A stretch of DNA of 64,000 nucleotides from a virus: positions 1 through 64,000 of IMG/VR virus record IMGVR_UViG_3300037502_002729; one strand, 5' to 3'. Shown here piece after piece: positions 7,119 through 64,000 of this stretch. The notes below the pieces were generated by a model. The model searched no databases. It was given only the letters and a program-made list of their open reading frames with translations, and had not been told where the DNA came from. The position numbers and the translations under genes are program-made. The stretch's first letter is position 1. Each line of letters opens with the position of its first letter.

Positions 7119-8675
7119 TTAGTCAGTTCTATATGTTATATATGTTTCATCACAAACTCTTATTTCTACCCATTCACCATCATAATATGCTAATGTGGAA
7201 TACCCATCCTCTTCAAAAATGGCTTCATCAAATTTATTTCTATTAAAATAACTAGTTTCATCGATATCAAAATCACGAATAAAACTTTTTGGATTTTCCT
7301 CATAATGATCTACTTCATTATCAATATATTCATAAACTTCTTTATCTGTATAATCATCTTTATCCAAAAAATGTTTTGGATCATCCCAAACCATAGATGA
7401 AATATATTCCATCATTTCATCTTTAGATATTTCAACAAAACTATCCAAATCAATTCCACGATTTTCATAATATGTTCTATTTCTAAATAACTCTGCTATA
7501 TTATCATAAATATCATGAATTGAGGTTATTGCTCTTTCTCTTGCATCTTCTTCTTTAAAGATTTCATATTCCTCTTTTACACCATTTTCATTTACAAAAT
7601 GAAAAACATGTCCCCCATATCTTTCTTCAATTTCCATATCAAAAAAATCAACTTTATCATTCTTTAACTCAAAATATCTATTTAATAAATCAACAAATTC
7701 TTCATTTGGTAAAACATTAGATTCTTCATATAATTTAAAAATAATATTAGCATATTCTAAATTACTATTCTCATCTCTTATTTCCATTTTTTCATAACTA
7801 GTCAAGAACTGATAAACAGCTTGTCTAACACAATCTTCATTTTCATCAAACAATGTTCCACTTTCTAAACTATCTAATCTTTTTCCATTATTTTCAAGAA
7901 CTTCATCTGATATTAACAAATCAATTCTAGTTTTGAAAAAATCAACATACTTTGAGAAATCAAGATCCATAACATTAAAATCTTCCTTTGAAGCATATTC
8001 TGAACCAAATGATTTTATCATATAATCTCCATCTGGGTTCTTCTTTAATAGAAGTTTTATAATGTAATCATAATATTCTTCACTTGGTTTCTTATTGAAC
8101 CTACCCTTCATTTGATAAACAACCCCATTCTTAATTGATGCTGTAACAAGTGATTTATTACTAACTTTACCAGTTTGACCTTTTAACTCATTAACCCTAA
8201 GAGAATATAAATCACCTTTTCCAGATCTACCACAATGCCCCATCCTTTCAGCCTCCTCTCTGCAAGGATTGGTTTTTAACTTAACCCAATAATACCCCAA
8301 CCCAGAATCATCCCTAAAATCCAATATAGTTATGTTTTCATCAAGATATTCAAAATCATAATCTTTTGCCTTCAATGATTTGTGCCATCTATCTTGCATA
8401 TTAACCAATTCATTGAATTCAACATTCTTAATGGTTTGTGTATTACCGTTTAATCCAGTTTTTATCCAATCAATTATCCCAGTTATATCCTCAATTTTTG
8501 ACCTTATCCTTTTGTCTTTAATTTTCTTTGCCAACCACATAGATAATTTACCAGCAACTGAATATAATAATTCAGCATCAGATTGGGATAGCTTGGCAAT
8601 CTTAACAAGATTATCAATAGTAGCCTTATTTTCAGTTAAGATACCAAATTGACTTTCTGTTATAATTATTTTCAT
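7119..8675 (-). CDS. hypothetical protein with PcfJ-like domain (paralog of 28848..30401)
   Basis: EAERMGHC, LYSLR, QMKGRFNKKP; start re-assigned to MKIIITESQ downstream of TATTTAT. Confidence 0.6.
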   Translation of the reverse strand: MKIIITESQFGILTENKATIDNLVKIAKLSQSDAELLYSVAGKLSMWLAKKIKDKRIRSKIEDITGIIDWIKTGLNGNTQTIKNVEFNELVNMQDRWHKSLKAKDYDFEYLDENITILDFRDDSGLGYYWVKLKTNPCREEAERMGHCGRSGKGDLYSLRVNELKGQTGKVSNKSLVTASIKNGVVYQMKGRFNKKPSEEYYDYIIKLLLKKNPDGDYMIKSFGSEYASKEDFNVMDLDFSKYVDFFKTRIDLLISDEVLENNGKRLDSLESGTLFDENEDCVRQAVYQFLTSYEKMEIRDENSNLEYANIIFKLYEESNVLPNEEFVDLLNRYFELKNDKVDFFDMEIEERYGGHVFHFVNENGVKEEYEIFKEEDARERAITSIHDIYDNIAELFRNRTYYENRGIDLDSFVEISKDEMMEYISSMVWDDPKHFLDKDDYTDKEVYEYIDNEVDHYEENPKSFIRDFDIDETSYFNRNKFDEAIFEEDGYSTLAYYDGEWVEIRVCDETYITYRTD

Positions 8676-14120: not shown

Positions 14121-14392
14121 AATTCAGTTATTTCTACAATTAGGGGTTCATCACCCTTAATAACTCTATGCCACAACCCTTTTGGTATGGATATAGTGTC
14201 ATTATTTTTTAGTTTAATAGGTAAAGCATCCCAGCTTTGGTATTTCCATCCTCCACCCTGGATTATCTTAACCTCTCTATTTGTTCTATCTCTATGCCAA
14301 TGTAATTCTTCAATATCAACAAATTGACTAAACTCTCTAATCAATTTTCCTTCTTTATTTTCTTGTTTGAATGGTAATGTTTCTTTTTCCAT
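14117..14392 (-). CDS. cupin-domain protein
   Basis: HWHRD...EV and IPKGLWHRV cupin motifs. Confidence 0.7.
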   Translation of the reverse strand: MEKETLPFKQENKEGKLIREFSQFVDIEELHWHRDRTNREVKIIQGGGWKYQSWDALPIKLKNNDTISIPKGLWHRVIKGDEPLIVEITEL

Positions 14393-14796
14393 TATCTATG
14401 TATTATTCCATTTATAAATCCAGGTTTAACCATATCTTGTAATTCTTCATCTGAATATTTTACTAATGCTGTATGTCTAATATACAAACTACTACCAAGT
14501 TCTAGTCCTTTTGGCAAGGAGGTTATTTTTGTATCTCTTATATCCAAAAAACGCCCAACTTCTAATCCTTTTGGTAATGAGGTTATTTTTGAACCAAAAA
14601 TATCCAAATCACGCCCAACTTTCAATCCTTCTGGTAATGATTCTATATTTGATCGAACCAAACTCAAATCACCTTCAACATTTAATTCTTCTTTTGTTAA
14701 TGGTAGATTATTTTCATGTTTCCATATAAATGGTGGATTTTTATTTTCCTTATCTTCAAGGAACTCAAATATCCTTTTTAGTACTTCTTTTTTCAT
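14392..14796 (-). CDS. 20-aa leucine-rich-repeat protein (3 LP repeats)
   Basis: N-cap MKKEVLKRIFEFLE, LPxGLxVGxxLxI repeats, C-cap KPGFING. Confidence 0.85.
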   Translation of the reverse strand: MKKEVLKRIFEFLEDKENKNPPFIWKHENNLPLTKEELNVEGDLSLVRSNIESLPEGLKVGRDLDIFGSKITSLPKGLEVGRFLDIRDTKITSLPKGLELGSSLYIRHTALVKYSDEELQDMVKPGFINGIIHR

Positions 14797-15266
14797 TCTG
14801 CATTAATTCTTCCTTTTATAAATCCAGGTTTAATCATTTTTCTTAGTTCATCATCATCATAATCTTCACCTAATGTTATACCTGTTAATTCCAAATTACC
14901 CCCAACTTTCAATCCTTTTGGTAAGGTTTTTATATTGGCACAACCATCTAATATTAAATCACCCCCAACTTCCAATCCTTTGGGTAAAAACTCTATATCT
15001 GATTCAGTTAAATCCAAATGACCACCAACTTTCAATCCTTTTGGTAATGACCTTATATATGTGTAGGATAAATCCAAATCACCACTAATTTTTAATCCTT
15101 CTGGTAAAGATTCTATTTCTGATTGTGAAAAATCCAAATCACCTTTAACATTTAAATCATCTTCTGTTAATGGCATATCATTTTTAAATTTCCATAAGAA
15201 TGGTATTCTCTGTTCTCCTTTTTCTTCAAGGAATTCAAATATTCTTGTTAATGCTTCTTTTTTCAT
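14793..15266 (-). CDS. 20-aa leucine-rich-repeat protein (4 repeats)
   Basis: Same caps and repeat consensus. Confidence 0.85.
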   Translation of the reverse strand: MKKEALTRIFEFLEEKGEQRIPFLWKFKNDMPLTEDDLNVKGDLDFSQSEIESLPEGLKISGDLDLSYTYIRSLPKGLKVGGHLDLTESDIEFLPKGLEVGGDLILDGCANIKTLPKGLKVGGNLELTGITLGEDYDDDELRKMIKPGFIKGRINAE

Positions 15267-15928
15267 TTTCTAATTATTCTTCCTTTTATAAAACCAGAAC
15301 CAATCATTTTTTTTAATTCATCATCTGTGTATTTGGTTAAAGTTGTCCAACTTATAAATAAATCATCACCAACTTCCAATCCTTTTGGTAAGGAAGTTAT
15401 TTTAGAACCGGATAAACTGAACCATTTCCCAACTTTTAATCCTTCTGGTAATGAGGTTATATCATTACAATTATTCAAATTCAAAGTTCCACCAACTTTC
15501 AATCCTTTTGGTAATGTTTGTATTGGCGAAAAAGCTAACCCTAAATTACCATCAACTTTCAATTCATCTGGTAATGAAGTTATGTTTGAATATGATAAAT
15601 TTAAATAACCACCAACTTTCAATCCATCTGGTAATGAGGTTATGTTTAAAAATGATAAATCCAAATCACCACCAACTTTCAATCCTTTTGGTAAAGAGGT
15701 TATATTTGTATCACTTAAATCCAAATTACCTTCAATATTTAATTCTTCATCTGTTAATGGTATATTATTTTTATGCTTCCAAAATAATGGACCCCTATGT
15801 TCTCCTTTTTCTTCAAGGAATTCAAATATTCTTGTTAATGCTTCTTTTTTCATTTTCTAATTATTCTTCCTTTTATAAAACCAGAACCAATCATTTTTTT
15901 TAATTCATCATCTGTGTATTTGGTTAAA
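15211..15928. repeat. ~131-bp direct repeat (15211-15341 and 15798-15928) spanning LRR gene junctions
   Basis: Apparently identical copies 587 bp apart, covering the C-cap of one gene and the N-cap of the next. Confidence 0.85.
15263..15853 (-). CDS. 20-aa leucine-rich-repeat protein (6 repeats)
   Basis: Same caps and repeat consensus. Confidence 0.85.
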   Translation of the reverse strand: MKKEALTRIFEFLEEKGEHRGPLFWKHKNNIPLTDEELNIEGNLDLSDTNITSLPKGLKVGGDLDLSFLNITSLPDGLKVGGYLNLSYSNITSLPDELKVDGNLGLAFSPIQTLPKGLKVGGTLNLNNCNDITSLPEGLKVGKWFSLSGSKITSLPKGLEVGDDLFISWTTLTKYTDDELKKMIGSGFIKGRIIRK

Positions 15929-16620
15929 TTTGCCCGAATTATAAATAAATCACCCCCAACTTTCAATCCTTTTGGTAATGAAGTTAATTTTTTGCAATCA
16001 TTTAAAGCTAAAATCTCACCAACTTCCAAGCCTTTTGGTAATGAACCTATAGTGGTATCTCTTAAATCCAACCGACCCCCAACTTTAAATCCTTCTGGTA
16101 AGGATCTTATTTTTGAACCCAACAACTTAATATCACCTCCAACTTTTAATCCTTTTGGTAATGTGGTTATATTTGAAAAACTTAAAGTCAAATTGCCCTT
16201 GACTTCCAAATCATTTGGTAATCGTGTTATTTCTGAATGTAAAAAGTTTAAATTACCTCCAACTTTCAATCCTTCTGATAAAGATTTTATTTTTGAATCT
16301 GATAAATCCAAGTTGCCCCCAATATCCAATCCTTTTGGTAATGAAGTTATGAGTGTATCAACTAAAATCAAATTACCCCTAACTATCAATCCTTCTGGCA
16401 ATGAAGTTATGTCTGAACTTAGTAAATCCAAATCACCCCCAACTTTCAAGCCTTGTGGTAATGAGGTTATGTTAGTATATGATAAATCCAAATCACCTTC
16501 AACATTTAAGTCTTCTTCTATTAATGGTATATTATTTAACAATTTAAATTTAAGTGGTATCCTATGTTCTCCCTTCCGTTCAAGGAAATCAAATATTCTT
16601 TTTATTGTTTCTTCTTTCAT
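15850..16620 (-). CDS. 20-aa leucine-rich-repeat protein (9 repeats)
   Basis: Same caps and repeat consensus. Confidence 0.85.
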   Translation of the reverse strand: MKEETIKRIFDFLERKGEHRIPLKFKLLNNIPLIEEDLNVEGDLDLSYTNITSLPQGLKVGGDLDLLSSDITSLPEGLIVRGNLILVDTLITSLPKGLDIGGNLDLSDSKIKSLSEGLKVGGNLNFLHSEITRLPNDLEVKGNLTLSFSNITTLPKGLKVGGDIKLLGSKIRSLPEGFKVGGRLDLRDTTIGSLPKGLEVGEILALNDCKKLTSLPKGLKVGGDLFIIRANLTKYTDDELKKMIGSGFIKGRIIRK

Positions 16621-20256: not shown

Positions 20257-20361
20257 TATTTATTTATTATTTTTAAAATCATTCCTCTTCTTTGGAATTT
20301 TATATATATCCGATTTTTTTCAAAGAGACCTAACAAAAAACTTGTTGGGTCTATTTTTTTT
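20257..20361 (+). ncRNA. candidate small RNA (own TATTTAT box and terminator)
   Basis: TATTTAT at 20257, no ORF, hairpin AGACCTAACAA/TTGTTGGGTCT plus T-run; complementary to the 40.27 and 41.65 kb elements. Confidence 0.45.
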
Positions 20362-20364
20362 AAC

Positions 20365-39559: not shown

Positions 39560-40243
39560 ATGAATTATATTGAAAAACATTTAAATTTATCAAAAAATTT
39601 AAATAAATTATTAAATGAAGAAATATGTAAAAATGGAAAAAATAATTTAAACAATTTGCTAAATAATGGTTTTTTTTTAAAAAAAAATATACTAACTGAA
39701 GCAGCAATTGAACCAGTAGAAGGTTTATTAATTAAATATAGAAATTTTTATTACAAAAATATTGCAAAAAAAATTTATAATGAAAAAATAAGTTATACTG
39801 GTTTTAGTGATGTTAAAATTTATAACCATTCTAATATTTTACAAAATCCAAATTATTATTTTATATTAACTTTTAAAACAGGTGATACTGGGACTTATTC
39901 TGCTGATACTAAAGTGATGTTATATAATTTACCAAAACAAAGATTTTTTTATTATGAATATGATAATAGTTCTGTTGCAAAATGGAAAAAACCAATTATA
40001 GGATATACACCTTTAGGAAGGGGAACAGAACTTGATTTTTATGAAGATTCAATTGATGCTTTAGTTCTTTCTGCAACAACAAAAGAAGTGAATTTTGGTG
40101 TAGAAAAATTTAAAATGGATCGTTTATCACCTTCACCTGATTGGTCAAAATCATTCCCAGCAAGTAAAATATTTGAAGATTTTGATGAATATTCAGAAGA
40201 TTTGTTAAGAGCTAAAAACCAAGTAATTAAAAAAATAACATAA
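39560..40243 (+). CDS. hypothetical protein
   Basis: 227-aa ORF; LLNEE and ILTEA motifs. Confidence 0.6.
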   Translation: MNYIEKHLNLSKNLNKLLNEEICKNGKNNLNNLLNNGFFLKKNILTEAAIEPVEGLLIKYRNFYYKNIAKKIYNEKISYTGFSDVKIYNHSNILQNPNYYFILTFKTGDTGTYSADTKVMLYNLPKQRFFYYEYDNSSVAKWKKPIIGYTPLGRGTELDFYEDSIDALVLSATTKEVNFGVEKFKMDRLSPSPDWSKSFPASKIFEDFDEYSEDLLRAKNQVIKKIT

Positions 40244-40248
40244 ATCTT

Positions 40249-40347
40249 ACAGATAGCATCTGTTGATTATAAATCGGATTTTTTAAAAAGAGGAGGTGTT
40301 CAAAATTTGGAAAAGGTTGGTGATAAGCCAACCTTTTCTTTTTTTTT
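40249..40347 (+). other. structured 3' element with orphan extended Shine-Dalgarno, followed by a terminator
   Basis: Hairpin ACAGAT-AGC-ATCTGT, AAATCGGAT, AGGAGGTGTTC (40291-40301), terminator AAAAGGTTGG...CCAACCTTTT. Confidence 0.5.
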
Positions 40348-41014
40348 AACCCTTCTTTGACATAATAACTTTATCAATTATTCCATAAGCCAAAGATTCA
40401 TTTGCATCTAGCCATAAATCCCTACTAGCATCAGTTTTAACAACTTCTGGATCTTTTCCACAATATTGACCTAGCAAGGTGAACAAAATATCATTTGTTT
40501 TTTGCCATTCTTTCATTGTGATTTCAGCATCTTGAATATTCCCAACAGCACCCCCAGAACTCTGGTGTAACATTGTTTTGGAAAACCGCAAGGAACTTCT
40601 CTTTCCTTTTGTTCCAGCACCAAGCAATATTGAACCCATTGATGCAGCCATTCCTGTGTTCACTGTGGCCACATCACACTTAATGTAGTCCATAACATCA
40701 ACAATTGATAAACCTGCCTTCACAGAGCCACCAGGGCTATCTATATGCAATGTTACATCAGATGAATCAGATGAATCCAAGAACATAAGTTGAGCCTGGA
40801 TTATGGTGGACATTCTATCTTCAACTGGACCTGCCACCCATATTAACCTATCTCTCATCAATCTTGAGAAGATATCAATTTGTGTTGCCCTCATTTCCCT
40901 TTCTTCAAGGATATAAGGTGTCATAGATGCAGATACATTTTTTTCAAAATAATCCAAATGGGATGATGGTTTTCCCAAGTGATCCACATAATAAGATTTA
41001 AATTCATTCTTCAT
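40346..41014 (-). CDS. clpP: ATP-dependent Clp protease proteolytic subunit
   Basis: DIFSRL, IDSPGG, GMAASMG, MLHQ, RDLW. Confidence 0.96.
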   Translation of the reverse strand: MKNEFKSYYVDHLGKPSSHLDYFEKNVSASMTPYILEEREMRATQIDIFSRLMRDRLIWVAGPVEDRMSTIIQAQLMFLDSSDSSDVTLHIDSPGGSVKAGLSIVDVMDYIKCDVATVNTGMAASMGSILLGAGTKGKRSSLRFSKTMLHQSSGGAVGNIQDAEITMKEWQKTNDILFTLLGQYCGKDPEVVKTDASRDLWLDANESLAYGIIDKVIMSKKG

Positions 41015-41565: not shown

Positions 41566-41601
41566 AAAAAAGGGTTGCAAGTATTTTGGCAACCCTTTTT
41601 T
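41566..41601. terminator. intrinsic terminator
   Basis: AAAAAAGGGTTGC...GCAACCCTTTTTT. Confidence 0.75.
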
Positions 41602-41603
41602 AA

Positions 41604-41687
41604 TTATAAGTTTATGGCTTGAAGCCGTGTTTGCAATTTCAACATCCGATTTTCTCCAAAAAGACATAACATGTTTGATATTTTCAT
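41604..41687 (-). other. stand-alone small transcript: 27-aa ORF or sRNA
   Basis: MKISNMLCLFGENRMLKLQTRLQAINL between TATTTAT (41708-41714) and the terminator. Confidence 0.45.
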
Positions 41688-42108: not shown

Positions 42109-42138
42109 TAAGTATATTTATATATAAATATATAGAAT

Positions 42139-44083: not shown

Positions 44084-44160
44084 TTGTTTTTTTTTTAAAA
44101 AAATGTTTAGATATAACAATATTGTTATATTTATAAATATATAAAAAATTGTAAAAATTT

Positions 44161-55581: not shown

Positions 55582-55644
55582 ATTTTATTTTTTGCATATT
55601 AATATTTGACATTATAGATATATTTATATATAAATAAAAATAAA

Positions 55645-63376: not shown

Positions 63377-64000
63377 ATGAAATTTGGCAAATTAAAAACA
63401 ACCATTGAGAATGATCTTTCAGAATCAATAAAAGATAGAAAGGTTTTTAAAGAAAATATTAAAAATTTTAAAAAGCATATATTAGGTGATAAAAATTTAT
63501 CCAAACTATATGTTCTATATGGTGATTTATCTAAACCTAGGGGTTTGAATGAAGTTGATGCAAAAAATTACTTGGATGAAGGTATTGATTGGGCAAAAAA
63601 GTTGATAAAAAAATCAAAAACACCATTGATATTAAATGGTTCAAATAACAATAATTATGAAGACATTGATAAATTGGTTTACGAAACAATCAATAATATT
63701 GATGAGCAGATTAAGGTTAAAAATAGAATATTGGAGACAATAAAAAAACCATTAGTTACTAATGAAAATATTATTAATATACCAATAAAATCTATGGTTA
63801 AGATTGCAAATAACAAAATTAGTGAGTATATAAATACTCTAAATGAGGAAACAAAAAAAGAAATATTAATACTTTTGAAAGAAGATAAAAATAAATTAAA
63901 CTTGGATTTTAATCAATTAAAAGAAGATGTTAGTAAAAAATTAAATGATTTATTGATTACTGAAAAGAATAGTGATGTTAGTTCAAAAATACTAAAAGCA
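63377..64000 (+). CDS. hypothetical protein (truncated by window end)
   Basis: MKFGKLKTTIEN..., open to the end of the window; TATTTATA at 63355. Confidence 0.6.
   Translation, partial: MKFGKLKTTIENDLSESIKDRKVFKENIKNFKKHILGDKNLSKLYVLYGDLSKPRGLNEVDAKNYLDEGIDWAKKLIKKSKTPLILNGSNNNNYEDIDKLVYETINNIDEQIKVKNRILETIKKPLVTNENIINIPIKSMVKIANNKISEYINTLNEETKKEILILLKEDKNKLNLDFNQLKEDVSKKLNDLLITEKNSDVSSKILKA

Follow-up and report, generated by a model that had tools for sequence, protein, structure and literature searches.

Ribosomes of Flavobacterium johnsoniae ignore Shine-Dalgarno (SD) sites because the 3' tail of their 16S rRNA is held by the proteins bS21, bS18 and bS6 (PMC7797042, Jha et al. 2021). The one gene with a strong SD is rpsU, which is better translated by ribosomes that lack bS21 (PMC9976891, McNutt et al. 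2023). A 13-bp helix between SD and anti-SD is formed on rpsU mRNA only when bS21 is absent, since helix and protein clash sterically (PMC13000453, PMC13000457, 2026), and single mismatches in the core SD of rpsU already abolish initiation (PMC13000453). Jumbo phages of freshwater Bacteroidetes that encode bS21 were described by Chen et al. (2022; PMC9723584); their predicted hosts are mainly Flavobacteriia. McNutt et al. (PMC9976891) speculated that bS21 phages encode products that aid the exchange of bS21, for example a protease.

The present analysis concerns a phage locus in which an SD-like sequence resembling that of rpsU is followed directly by a terminator. We know of no use of the 16S tail in Flavobacterium other than the autoregulation of rpsU. 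Genes for bS21 are carried by many aquatic phages, which poses the question of how the phage protein reaches the ribosomes and what it does there.

The clpP locus and its phage family

The window, by which we mean the whole stretch of 64 kb that was analysed, is the first part of a 107-kb IMG/VR record that is about 35% complete. It has a G+C content of 28% and contains clpP, an HNH endonuclease, thioredoxin, thyX, a tmRNA and two tRNAs. The SD-like word AGGAGGTGTTC at 40291-40301 of the plus strand occurs once in the window (with matches in 0 of 100 shuffles) and once in the entire record. It lies between two convergent genes, in a region with the following features, given in window positions.

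39560 to 40243, plus strand: upstream ORF of 227 aa without family assignment (stop codon 40241-40243), whose transcript may read into the element
40243 to 40268, plus strand: predicted hairpin P1 (AATC..ACAGAT-AGC-ATCTGT.GATT), which ends directly before AUAAA
40244 to 40345: convergent gap of 102 nt between the plus-strand ORF 39560-40243 and clpP on the minus strand
40267 to 40337, plus strand: match to the covariance model from AUAAA through P3 (56.7 bits, E 7e-9)
40269 to 40273, plus strand: AUAAA (inside TATAAAT), nearly invariant in an alignment of 50 sequences
40274 to 40310, plus strand: tentative hairpin P2 from predicted folds, with 40274-40282 (UCGGAUUUU) opposite 40302-40310 (AAAAUUUGG) and a loop that contains the purine block
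40289 to 40301, plus strand: extended SD-like block AGAGGAGGUGUUC, with 13 contiguous pairs, one of them G·U, to the 16S tail GGAACACCUCCUUUCU
40307 to 40360, plus strand: TTG-initiated frame of 17 codons that runs through the terminator, not a gene
40309 to 40347, plus strand: intrinsic terminator P3 from a terminator scan (stem 40309-40339, T-run 40340-40347), which clpP shares in the opposite direction
40346 to 41014, minus strand: phage clpP, convergent with the element (Pfam CLP_protease, E 2e-56)

The clpP stop codon (40346-40348) falls within the T-run of the element. The 227-aa ORF matched nothing in Pfam or PHROG, and no relatives were found by a search with its protein. The search based on ClpP yielded more than 599 related viral stretches, 80 of which were kept, including complete genomes of 317-326 kb. 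Three of the complete genomes encode bS21; the solved structure nearest to the phage protein is bS21 of F. johnsoniae (7JIL chain z, E 4e-16). By gene content and the context of bS21, the phages that carry the element match a freshwater Bacteroidota family with genomes of about 320 kb that includes the bS21-encoding phages of Chen et al. (2022) together with related phages. The 317-326 kb relatives, which are placed in the same family, encode bS21 at a conserved position on the reverse strand; the clade of the window differs from the phages of Chen et al. in having no bS21.

The first-pass annotation, made from the letters of the window alone, had reported an orphan SD motif between a hairpin and a terminator. 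The motif is indeed present as a single copy, and a search of the record and its relatives established its conservation: each of the 80 ClpP-linked loci that were kept has the element immediately 3' of clpP and on the strand opposite to it. The strict pattern of the element occurs in 74 of these loci, and the remaining six contain weaker variants (-13.4 to -19.8 kcal/mol) with differing 3' extensions. The order of the parts is hairpin P1, the nearly invariant AUAAA, an A-rich stretch, GGRGGU(G/A)UU and the terminator P3. Across 50 distinct aligned sequences, from phages with ClpP proteins 72-98% identical to that of the window, GG.GGU.UU is invariant and ATAAA nearly so (columns invariant or at least 90%), and the flanks can hardly be aligned. 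The block reads AAAAGGGGGUGUUC(U/C) in most relatives and AAGAGGAGGU(G/A)UU(C/U) in the clade of the window. Since the upstream gene of the window's clade is unrelated to that of the distant relatives, the element is tied to the end of clpP and not to the gene that precedes it. The constant position 3' of clpP had not been noted in the first-pass annotation, nor had the lack of phage bS21 in the window's clade. The element abuts the phage clpP, and its link to the exchange protease of which McNutt et al. speculated is one of position only.

Every genome checked contained one copy of the element. Second copies of GGAGGTGTTC in the genomes G002 and G004 were considered as additional elements and discarded; they lie within a coding ORF and were taken as chance. 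On the reverse strand of the phage genomes no match to the motif was found. A search of all viral contigs for exact copies of AAAAGGGGGTGTTC gave 80 matches, of which 19 show the strict element pattern and two more are variant-like; most of the others either have a start codon 4-12 nt downstream, in the manner of ribosome-binding sites, or belong to unrelated phages. A covariance model, the construction of which had been suggested at the outset, gives one strong match per relative locus. The match at 40267-40337 is the only strong one on the plus strand of the 64-kb window; its terminator is also covered by a weaker match of 38.1 bits to the other strand. The model found no match in the host rpsU and phage bS21 loci. 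With Rfam 15 at gathering thresholds the window yields only the tmRNA and two tRNAs and no match to the element; a permissive E-value scan of 40150-40450 had PyrG_leader as its best result, with 23.9 bits against a cut-off of 65. No such RNA is described in the text of Chen et al. (2022; PMC9723584) or elsewhere in the literature searched. It is concluded that a conserved, non-coding RNA element, presumably transcribed, is encoded at 40243-40347 of the plus strand.

The search for bS21 led to a site far from the element. In the genomes G001 and G002, bS21 lies between genes of 149 and 232 aa, and the window reaches into the corresponding region of its own record.

63377 to 64000, plus strand: part of the syntenic bS21 site that lies within the window (flanking genes at 63377-64069 and 64141-64569 of the record, E 4e-45 and 2e-51)

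At this site (63.4-64.6 kb) the two flanking genes are 71 nt apart and no bS21 lies between them. No bS21 was found in the genomes G000, G003 (90% complete) and G005, and G003 and G005, which are the closest relatives, share the arrangement with the empty site. In 24 further relatives the flanking gene was located on 21 contigs. Outside the window's clade bS21 stood beside it at the fixed position in 17 of 17 cases; in all four further members of the GGAGG clade the site was empty, which brings the count for the window's clade to seven of seven. One bS21-bearing relative, L024, has a GGAGG core. The absence of bS21 in the clade, which probably goes back to a single evolutionary event, shows the RNA to be independent of phage bS21; it does not demonstrate that block allele and bS21 are correlated. 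In the relatives that have bS21 its gene is situated about 30-40 kb from the element, and the phage rpsU genes have no SD.

Folding, strand and coding capacity

Of 45 distinct relatives, 43 have a hairpin whose end lies 0-2 nt ahead of AUAAA; its stem is built from more than 10 unrelated sequences, and the median z is -2.6. The plus-strand fold of P1 is more stable than the minus-strand fold in 37 of the 45. The adjoining AUAAA is a candidate single-stranded processing or binding site, or else a candidate T4-type TATAAATA promoter box. The word TATAAATA is enriched between the genes of this phage, with 37 of 65 copies in the intergenic 7.5% of the genome, in both orientations. If P2 is formed, its outer pairs would begin immediately after AUAAA, which argues for a position of AUAAA inside the RNA and against its being the -10 box of a short RNA, but P2 is weak.

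P2 itself is a plausible hairpin that is not established. In relatives (G)AACA is predicted to pair with UGUU(C), the outer stems vary and AAAGGRGG is left in the loop. In a fixed register, 69% of the cells of the inner and 54% of those of the outer stem can pair; energies range from -2 to -4 kcal/mol, with a median z of about -0.9 against shuffles. The predicted unpaired probability has a median of 0.81 for the core of the block and of 0.25 for its UGUUC extension. Because UGUUC is mostly paired in the weak P2 that is predicted, part of its conservation could be structural. Yet the 3' strand of P2 is fixed while its partner strand varies, and is wholly different in the clade of the window, which suggests that a constraint from outside acts on UGUUC.

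In P3, 98-99% of the cells pair, with compensatory changes in 7-9 of the 11 pairs. P3, a G+C-rich hairpin with a U-run behind it, is the only part of the element with the properties of an intrinsic (bidirectional) terminator, and a terminator leaves the conserved block upstream of it unexplained. In the relatives the stop codon of clpP can be read as lying within the loop of P3; in the clade of the window a new hairpin seems to have replaced the left arm, so that clpP ends just beyond it. The wobble cells of P3 comprise 13 G·U and one A·C, a ratio that favours a plus-strand RNA. A function of the minus strand, i.e. of a mimic of the 16S tail lying beyond the clpP terminator, was ruled out by this 13:1 ratio and by the greater plus-strand stability of P1, and also by the exchange of GGAGG for GGGGG, which preserves the pairing only if the RNA is the plus strand.

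No gene follows the block. The TTG at 40307 is located 10 nt past GGAGG, the spacing that the AUG has in host rpsU, but its frame stops after six codons in the closest relatives (L002, 98% ClpP identity) and the codon is TTA in the sister lineages L005-L010. A small ORF or leader peptide behind the SD was rejected as the frame is not conserved. Within 3-14 nt past the core, 47 of the 50 distinct relatives have neither ATG, GTG nor TTG, and ATG occurs in none of the 50. A start codon of the rpsU type that opens a bS21 ORF about 10 nt downstream is missing, and the terminator directly follows the block. The statement of the first-pass annotation that no credible ORF follows the motif is borne out by these data.

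Pairing with the 16S tail, host rpsU leaders and a candidate partner RNA

The 3' end of Flavobacterium 16S rRNA is GGAACACCUCCUUUCU according to the oligonucleotide T1 (PMC13000453). The sequence occurs 3-11 times per genome in five complete Flavobacterium genomes, and one copy that was checked is the 3' end of SSU rRNA; the tail given in the first-pass annotation is correct for this genus. No other site in the 107-kb record pairs as strongly as the block, for which RNAduplex predicts -22.4 kcal/mol with the tail; of the 25 best windows listed it alone is intergenic. A site inside a coding region at 75271 of the record comes close, with -21.3 kcal/mol, and is attributed to chance. The pairing is in the range of the extended SD of rpsU (9-13 or more consecutive pairs, below about -13 kcal/mol). 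Genuine initiation regions of the phage present a different picture: 133 such regions give a median of -1.5 kcal/mol for the predicted duplex with the tail, in agreement with the earlier description of the leaders as A-rich and devoid of an SD, and they are also poor in G. Seven of them reach -7 kcal/mol or better, five of which have a common AAAAGGAGA junction. In the relatives the block is predicted to form 13-14 contiguous pairs with the Flavobacterium tail, with a median of -22.3 kcal/mol (47 elements). In two lineages the sequence is UAUUC, which is mismatched to the canonical tail, and their duplexes reach only -14 to -18 kcal/mol.

For comparison with the host, rpsU was sought in bacterial genomes with a profile of phage bS21, which found nothing; a protein search with the same profile returned only proteins of 59-76 aa with 66-100% identity, none of them named as bacterial. 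With the F. johnsoniae bS21 sequence as the query, 80 Flavobacteriaceae rpsU loci were obtained. In these leaders a TAnnTTTG promoter box precedes ...ACGAGAGGAGGUGUC-N6-AUG or ...ACGAAAGGGGGUGUC-N6-AUG. Across 33 distinct host leaders, the duplex predicted with the tail has a median of -21.7 kcal/mol, which is on a par with the phage median. The GA-GGAGG allele is found in 60 of 80 host leaders and six of 50 phage elements, and the AA-GGGGG allele in 15 of 80 and 39 of 50, respectively; either allele forms exactly one G·U with the tail. That the same two alleles recur in host and phage is the strongest argument from sequence that the block and the rpsU SD are read by the same partner. Good binding of the GGGGG form, with its G·U, would be expected from its presence in the 15 host leaders.

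Altogether, the phage element resembles the extended SD region of Bacteroidia rpsU (PMC7797042, PMC9976891, PMC13000453, PMC13000457) in its 13-14 nt of complementarity, the equal predicted energy, the two common alleles and a genetic background that is otherwise free of SDs. It differs in being phage-encoded, in having neither start codon nor ORF and in its position between hairpin plus AUAAA on one side and the terminator on the other. It also pairs further toward the 5' side of the tail, with UGUUC in place of the UGUC of Flavobacterium rpsU.

A second possible partner is an RNA encoded in the window itself.

20270 to 20362, plus strand: candidate partner small RNA, clade-specific, composed of a hairpin ATTCC/GGAAT with the pyrimidine loop UCUUCUUU, then AUCCGAUUU, then a terminator

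This 20.3-kb RNA is 81-88% identical among relatives of the clade. The first-pass annotation had suggested that it is complementary to the element and gates it. The complements do exist: ATCCGATTT is located at 20308 and TCCTCTT within 20283-20290, and AUCCGAUUU is complementary over 9 nt to AAAUCGGAU at 40271-40279. A third copy of ATCCGATTT occurs at 41644. In the L010 lineage the element reads AAAUUGGAU and the partner AUCCAAUUU, which amounts to one compensatory change (C>U with G>A). The duplex of the element with the 20.3-kb RNA is predicted at -23.3 kcal/mol, in the top 0.1% but not the best of the genome (approximately 13th-17th of 21,458 genome windows). The RNA is confined to the clade; a counterpart in distant relatives, sought via the neighbouring protein, gave only one marginal match. 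Pairing with the 20.3-kb RNA, or gating by it, is kept as a tentative lead that rests on the one compensatory change.

Proposed function, rival explanations and known systems

Our preferred reading, to which we assign a probability of about 0.5, takes the RNA for a copy of the rpsU initiation region that has no ORF and would occupy the freed anti-SD on 30S subunits lacking bS21; its transcription, its binding to 30S and the physiological effect are inferred. The purine block would copy the extended SD of rpsU, the only functional SD that the host has, but lacks a start codon behind it, and 13-14 nt of the RNA would pair with the 16S rRNA 3' tail. Since this helix and bound bS21 are mutually exclusive, pairing would be limited to 30S subunits whose tail is not locked by bS21. 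The RNA would hold such subunits, compete with host rpsU mRNA and thereby break or bias the autoregulatory loop of host bS21. In relatives with an SD-less bS21 of their own, the phage protein would be favoured; in the clade of the window, which has no phage bS21, the supply of host bS21 would simply be lowered. A decoy for bS21-deficient 30S subunits had been put forward in the first-pass annotation. The part of the proposal that concerns the pairing has held up, as it equals that of rpsU leaders and fits the published structures, while the binding stays a prediction. In a wider form, which we regard as possible but would not bet on, the virus uses a decoy for one subpopulation of ribosomes, cuts the bS21 feedback and may evict host bS21; the allele would track host rpsU and the 20.3-kb RNA might serve as antidote or timer. 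In the window's clade, a decrease in host bS21 should also harm the phage's own SD-less messages (McNutt 2023), which counts against the decoy. Also counted against it were that AUAAA and P1 are not accounted for, that UGUUC is partly sequestered, that UAUUC creates a mismatch in two lineages and that six loci have other 3' extensions, that initiation on rpsU is lost with single core mismatches, which bears on the G·U of the GGGGG form, and that a coding-region site pairs almost as strongly by chance.

Some of these points favour a rather unlikely alternative in which the element is a trans-acting sRNA or a protein-binding RNA. Its conserved purine loop would then recognise a pyrimidine-rich site in an mRNA of host or phage, the 20.3-kb RNA or an RNA-binding protein, and the 16S match would be a by-product. 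The layout of 5' hairpin, single-stranded seed and terminator is typical of sRNAs, the conserved AUAAA and P1 are unnecessary for anti-SD pairing, UGUUC lies partly within a stem, and the 20.3-kb RNA offers two complementary segments and one compensatory change. Yet no other long complement was found in the phage genomes or the five Flavobacterium genomes, the 20.3-kb partner is confined to one clade and its duplex is not unique, and the fixed 3' strand of P2 opposite a varying partner strand indicates an outside constraint. Above all, 14 nt of complementarity together with the two alleles of rpsU are hard to obtain as a by-product. The location directly after a plus-strand ORF and before the terminator of its transcript would also suit a cis-acting element in the 3'-UTR of the late transcript from upstream, similar to STAB-SD. 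Such an element would recruit a 30S subunit or retain a terminating ribosome, and so shield the mRNA end from nucleases or help ribosome recycling, and would leave host bS21 unaffected. In some relatives the upstream stop is just 17-25 nt from the purine block, and SD-like stabilisers that do not initiate are known in Bacillus (PMC4113751). We consider this explanation improbable: the upstream gene differs between clades and the element stays with clpP, the known STAB-SD elements work at 5' ends against 5' exonucleases, and replete ribosomes of Bacteroidia do not read SDs (PMC7797042), so that only the small bS21-free pool could bind.

An element without function can hardly be reconciled with the data. 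It would be a chance SD-like word beside a bidirectional terminator, as suggested by the chance site of similar strength in a coding region of the same record, or the decaying remnant of a lost rpsU initiation region, as suggested by the absence of bS21 from the window's clade. A chance word would not be expected to remain invariant in 50 distinct sequences with ClpP identities of 72-98% and flanks that cannot be aligned, i.e. in relatives that are not near-identical at neutral sites. The relic of a phage rpsU, which the first-pass annotation had offered as an alternative to the decoy, was rejected: bS21-bearing relatives keep the same ORF-less anatomy, their bS21 lies elsewhere and lacks an SD, and the bS21 site of this genome is a different, fixed one at 64 kb that is empty.

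Should the mimic of the rpsU docking site be confirmed, it would be the first case known to us of a virus that targets the rRNA tail with a decoy RNA. Encoded next to clpP, such an RNA provides a concrete and easily testable handle on the question of phage bS21. Its retention in a clade without bS21 separates the role of the RNA from that of the protein and predicts an effect on the supply of host bS21 or on bS21-free subunits.

Outside the Bacteroidota, the closest likeness is to the STAB-SD of Bacillus thuringiensis cry3A (PMC4113751), which is SD-like and thought to bind the 3' end of 16S rRNA without initiation. STAB-SD is part of the 5' leader on a long mRNA in Firmicutes, whose ribosomes read SDs freely, and blocks decay from the 5' end. 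The phage element shares with it the non-initiating SD-like sequence and differs in location: it follows the upstream stop, next to the terminator and with clpP convergent, and is thus at the 3' end of an mRNA or in a short RNA, in hosts whose ribosomes hide the anti-SD. RNA decoys that mimic natural ligands are well known in bacteria, with 6S RNA imitating open promoter DNA and CsrB/RsmZ imitating the target sites of CsrA. The logic would be common to all of them, in that a non-coding RNA copies a binding site and thereby titrates a piece of cellular machinery. In contrast to these decoys, the proposed target of the phage RNA is the 16S tail of a subpopulation of ribosomes, each RNA would carry a single site, and the binding is as yet deduced from the predicted pairing.

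Terminator remodelling and breadth of the element family

In the window's clade, that is, the close relatives with a GGAGG-type element, the terminator shared with clpP has been remodelled such that a new stand-alone hairpin (GGTTGG...CCAACC) stands in place of the ancestral left arm. The old right arm is kept as the last clpP codons (KKG*) at 40348-40357 of the window, where it corresponds to the right arm of the P3 terminator in the relatives. The predicted consequence of transcriptional readthrough is base pairing between the old right arm and the AGGAGG block of the element. An exact-word scan revealed further variants of the element with differing terminator stems on two viral contigs, one of 219 kb (L306, at about 1010-1080) and one of 133 kb (L307, at 7687-7757). 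Because of these two variants, the element family must be wider than the 80 ClpP-linked loci that were kept.

A candidate small RNA and a third copy of the 9-nt word

The following two features of the window lie outside the element.

20270-20362, plus strand: candidate small RNA, conserved within the window's clade
41644-41652, plus strand: third copy of ATCCGATTT, located intergenically where the HNH endonuclease and thioredoxin genes diverge

In the candidate small RNA, a hairpin stem (ATTCC/GGAAT) carries a pyrimidine loop and is followed by AUCCGAUUU and then by a terminator. The loop reads UCUUCUUU in the window; the L010 lineage of the same clade has CUCCUCCAUCUUU instead, with CCUCC inside it. 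The RNA and the element share two stretches of complementarity, with one compensatory change. Three copies of ATCCGATTT were observed in the window versus 0.13 expected, and upstream of the copy listed here, at 41569-41597, stands a strong terminator-like hairpin (GGGTTGC...GCAACCC) between an A-run and a T-run.

Other complements to the 16S tail and intergenic boxes

The second-best complement in the 107-kb record to the 3' end of Flavobacterium 16S rRNA is AAGGGGGGTGTTTC, located outside the window at 75268-75290 (plus strand), with a predicted duplex energy of -21.3 kcal/mol. The site falls within a stretch called coding by the ORF caller, and the match is taken as a chance occurrence. Upstream of genes in this phage, partial SD-like words (-6 to -9.7 kcal/mol) were found only at the junctions of tandem paralogues, which share ...TATAAAAGGAGA/AAGGAAGA... 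13-19 nt before each ATG.

14392-16620 of the window, minus strand: tandem paralogues
75818-78965 of the record: tandem paralogues
41767, 42116-42130, 44129-44139 and 55622-55636 of the window: examples of TATAAATA / TATTTATA boxes

Over the whole record, 37 of the 65 copies of these boxes are intergenic, a strong enrichment given that intergenic sequence makes up 7.5% of the DNA. The boxes precede start codons by 8-20 nt, can face either way, frequently form back-to-back palindromes, and probably represent a phage promoter box, perhaps of a T4-like late type.

The empty phage bS21 site and host rpsU

63377-64000 of the window, continuing to 64569 of the record: adjoining genes, separated by a 71-nt gap, that flank phage bS21 in relatives

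bS21 is absent from this otherwise fixed site in the window's phage and its clade and is present in 17/17 other relatives. Among the 80 Flavobacterium host rpsU loci (gene at positions 401-577), the Shine-Dalgarno sequence occurs as two coupled alleles, GAGA-GGAGG in 60 species and GAAA-GGGGG in 15, each forming one G·U pair with the 16S tail; the perfect AAAGGAGG is rare in host rpsU (3/80).
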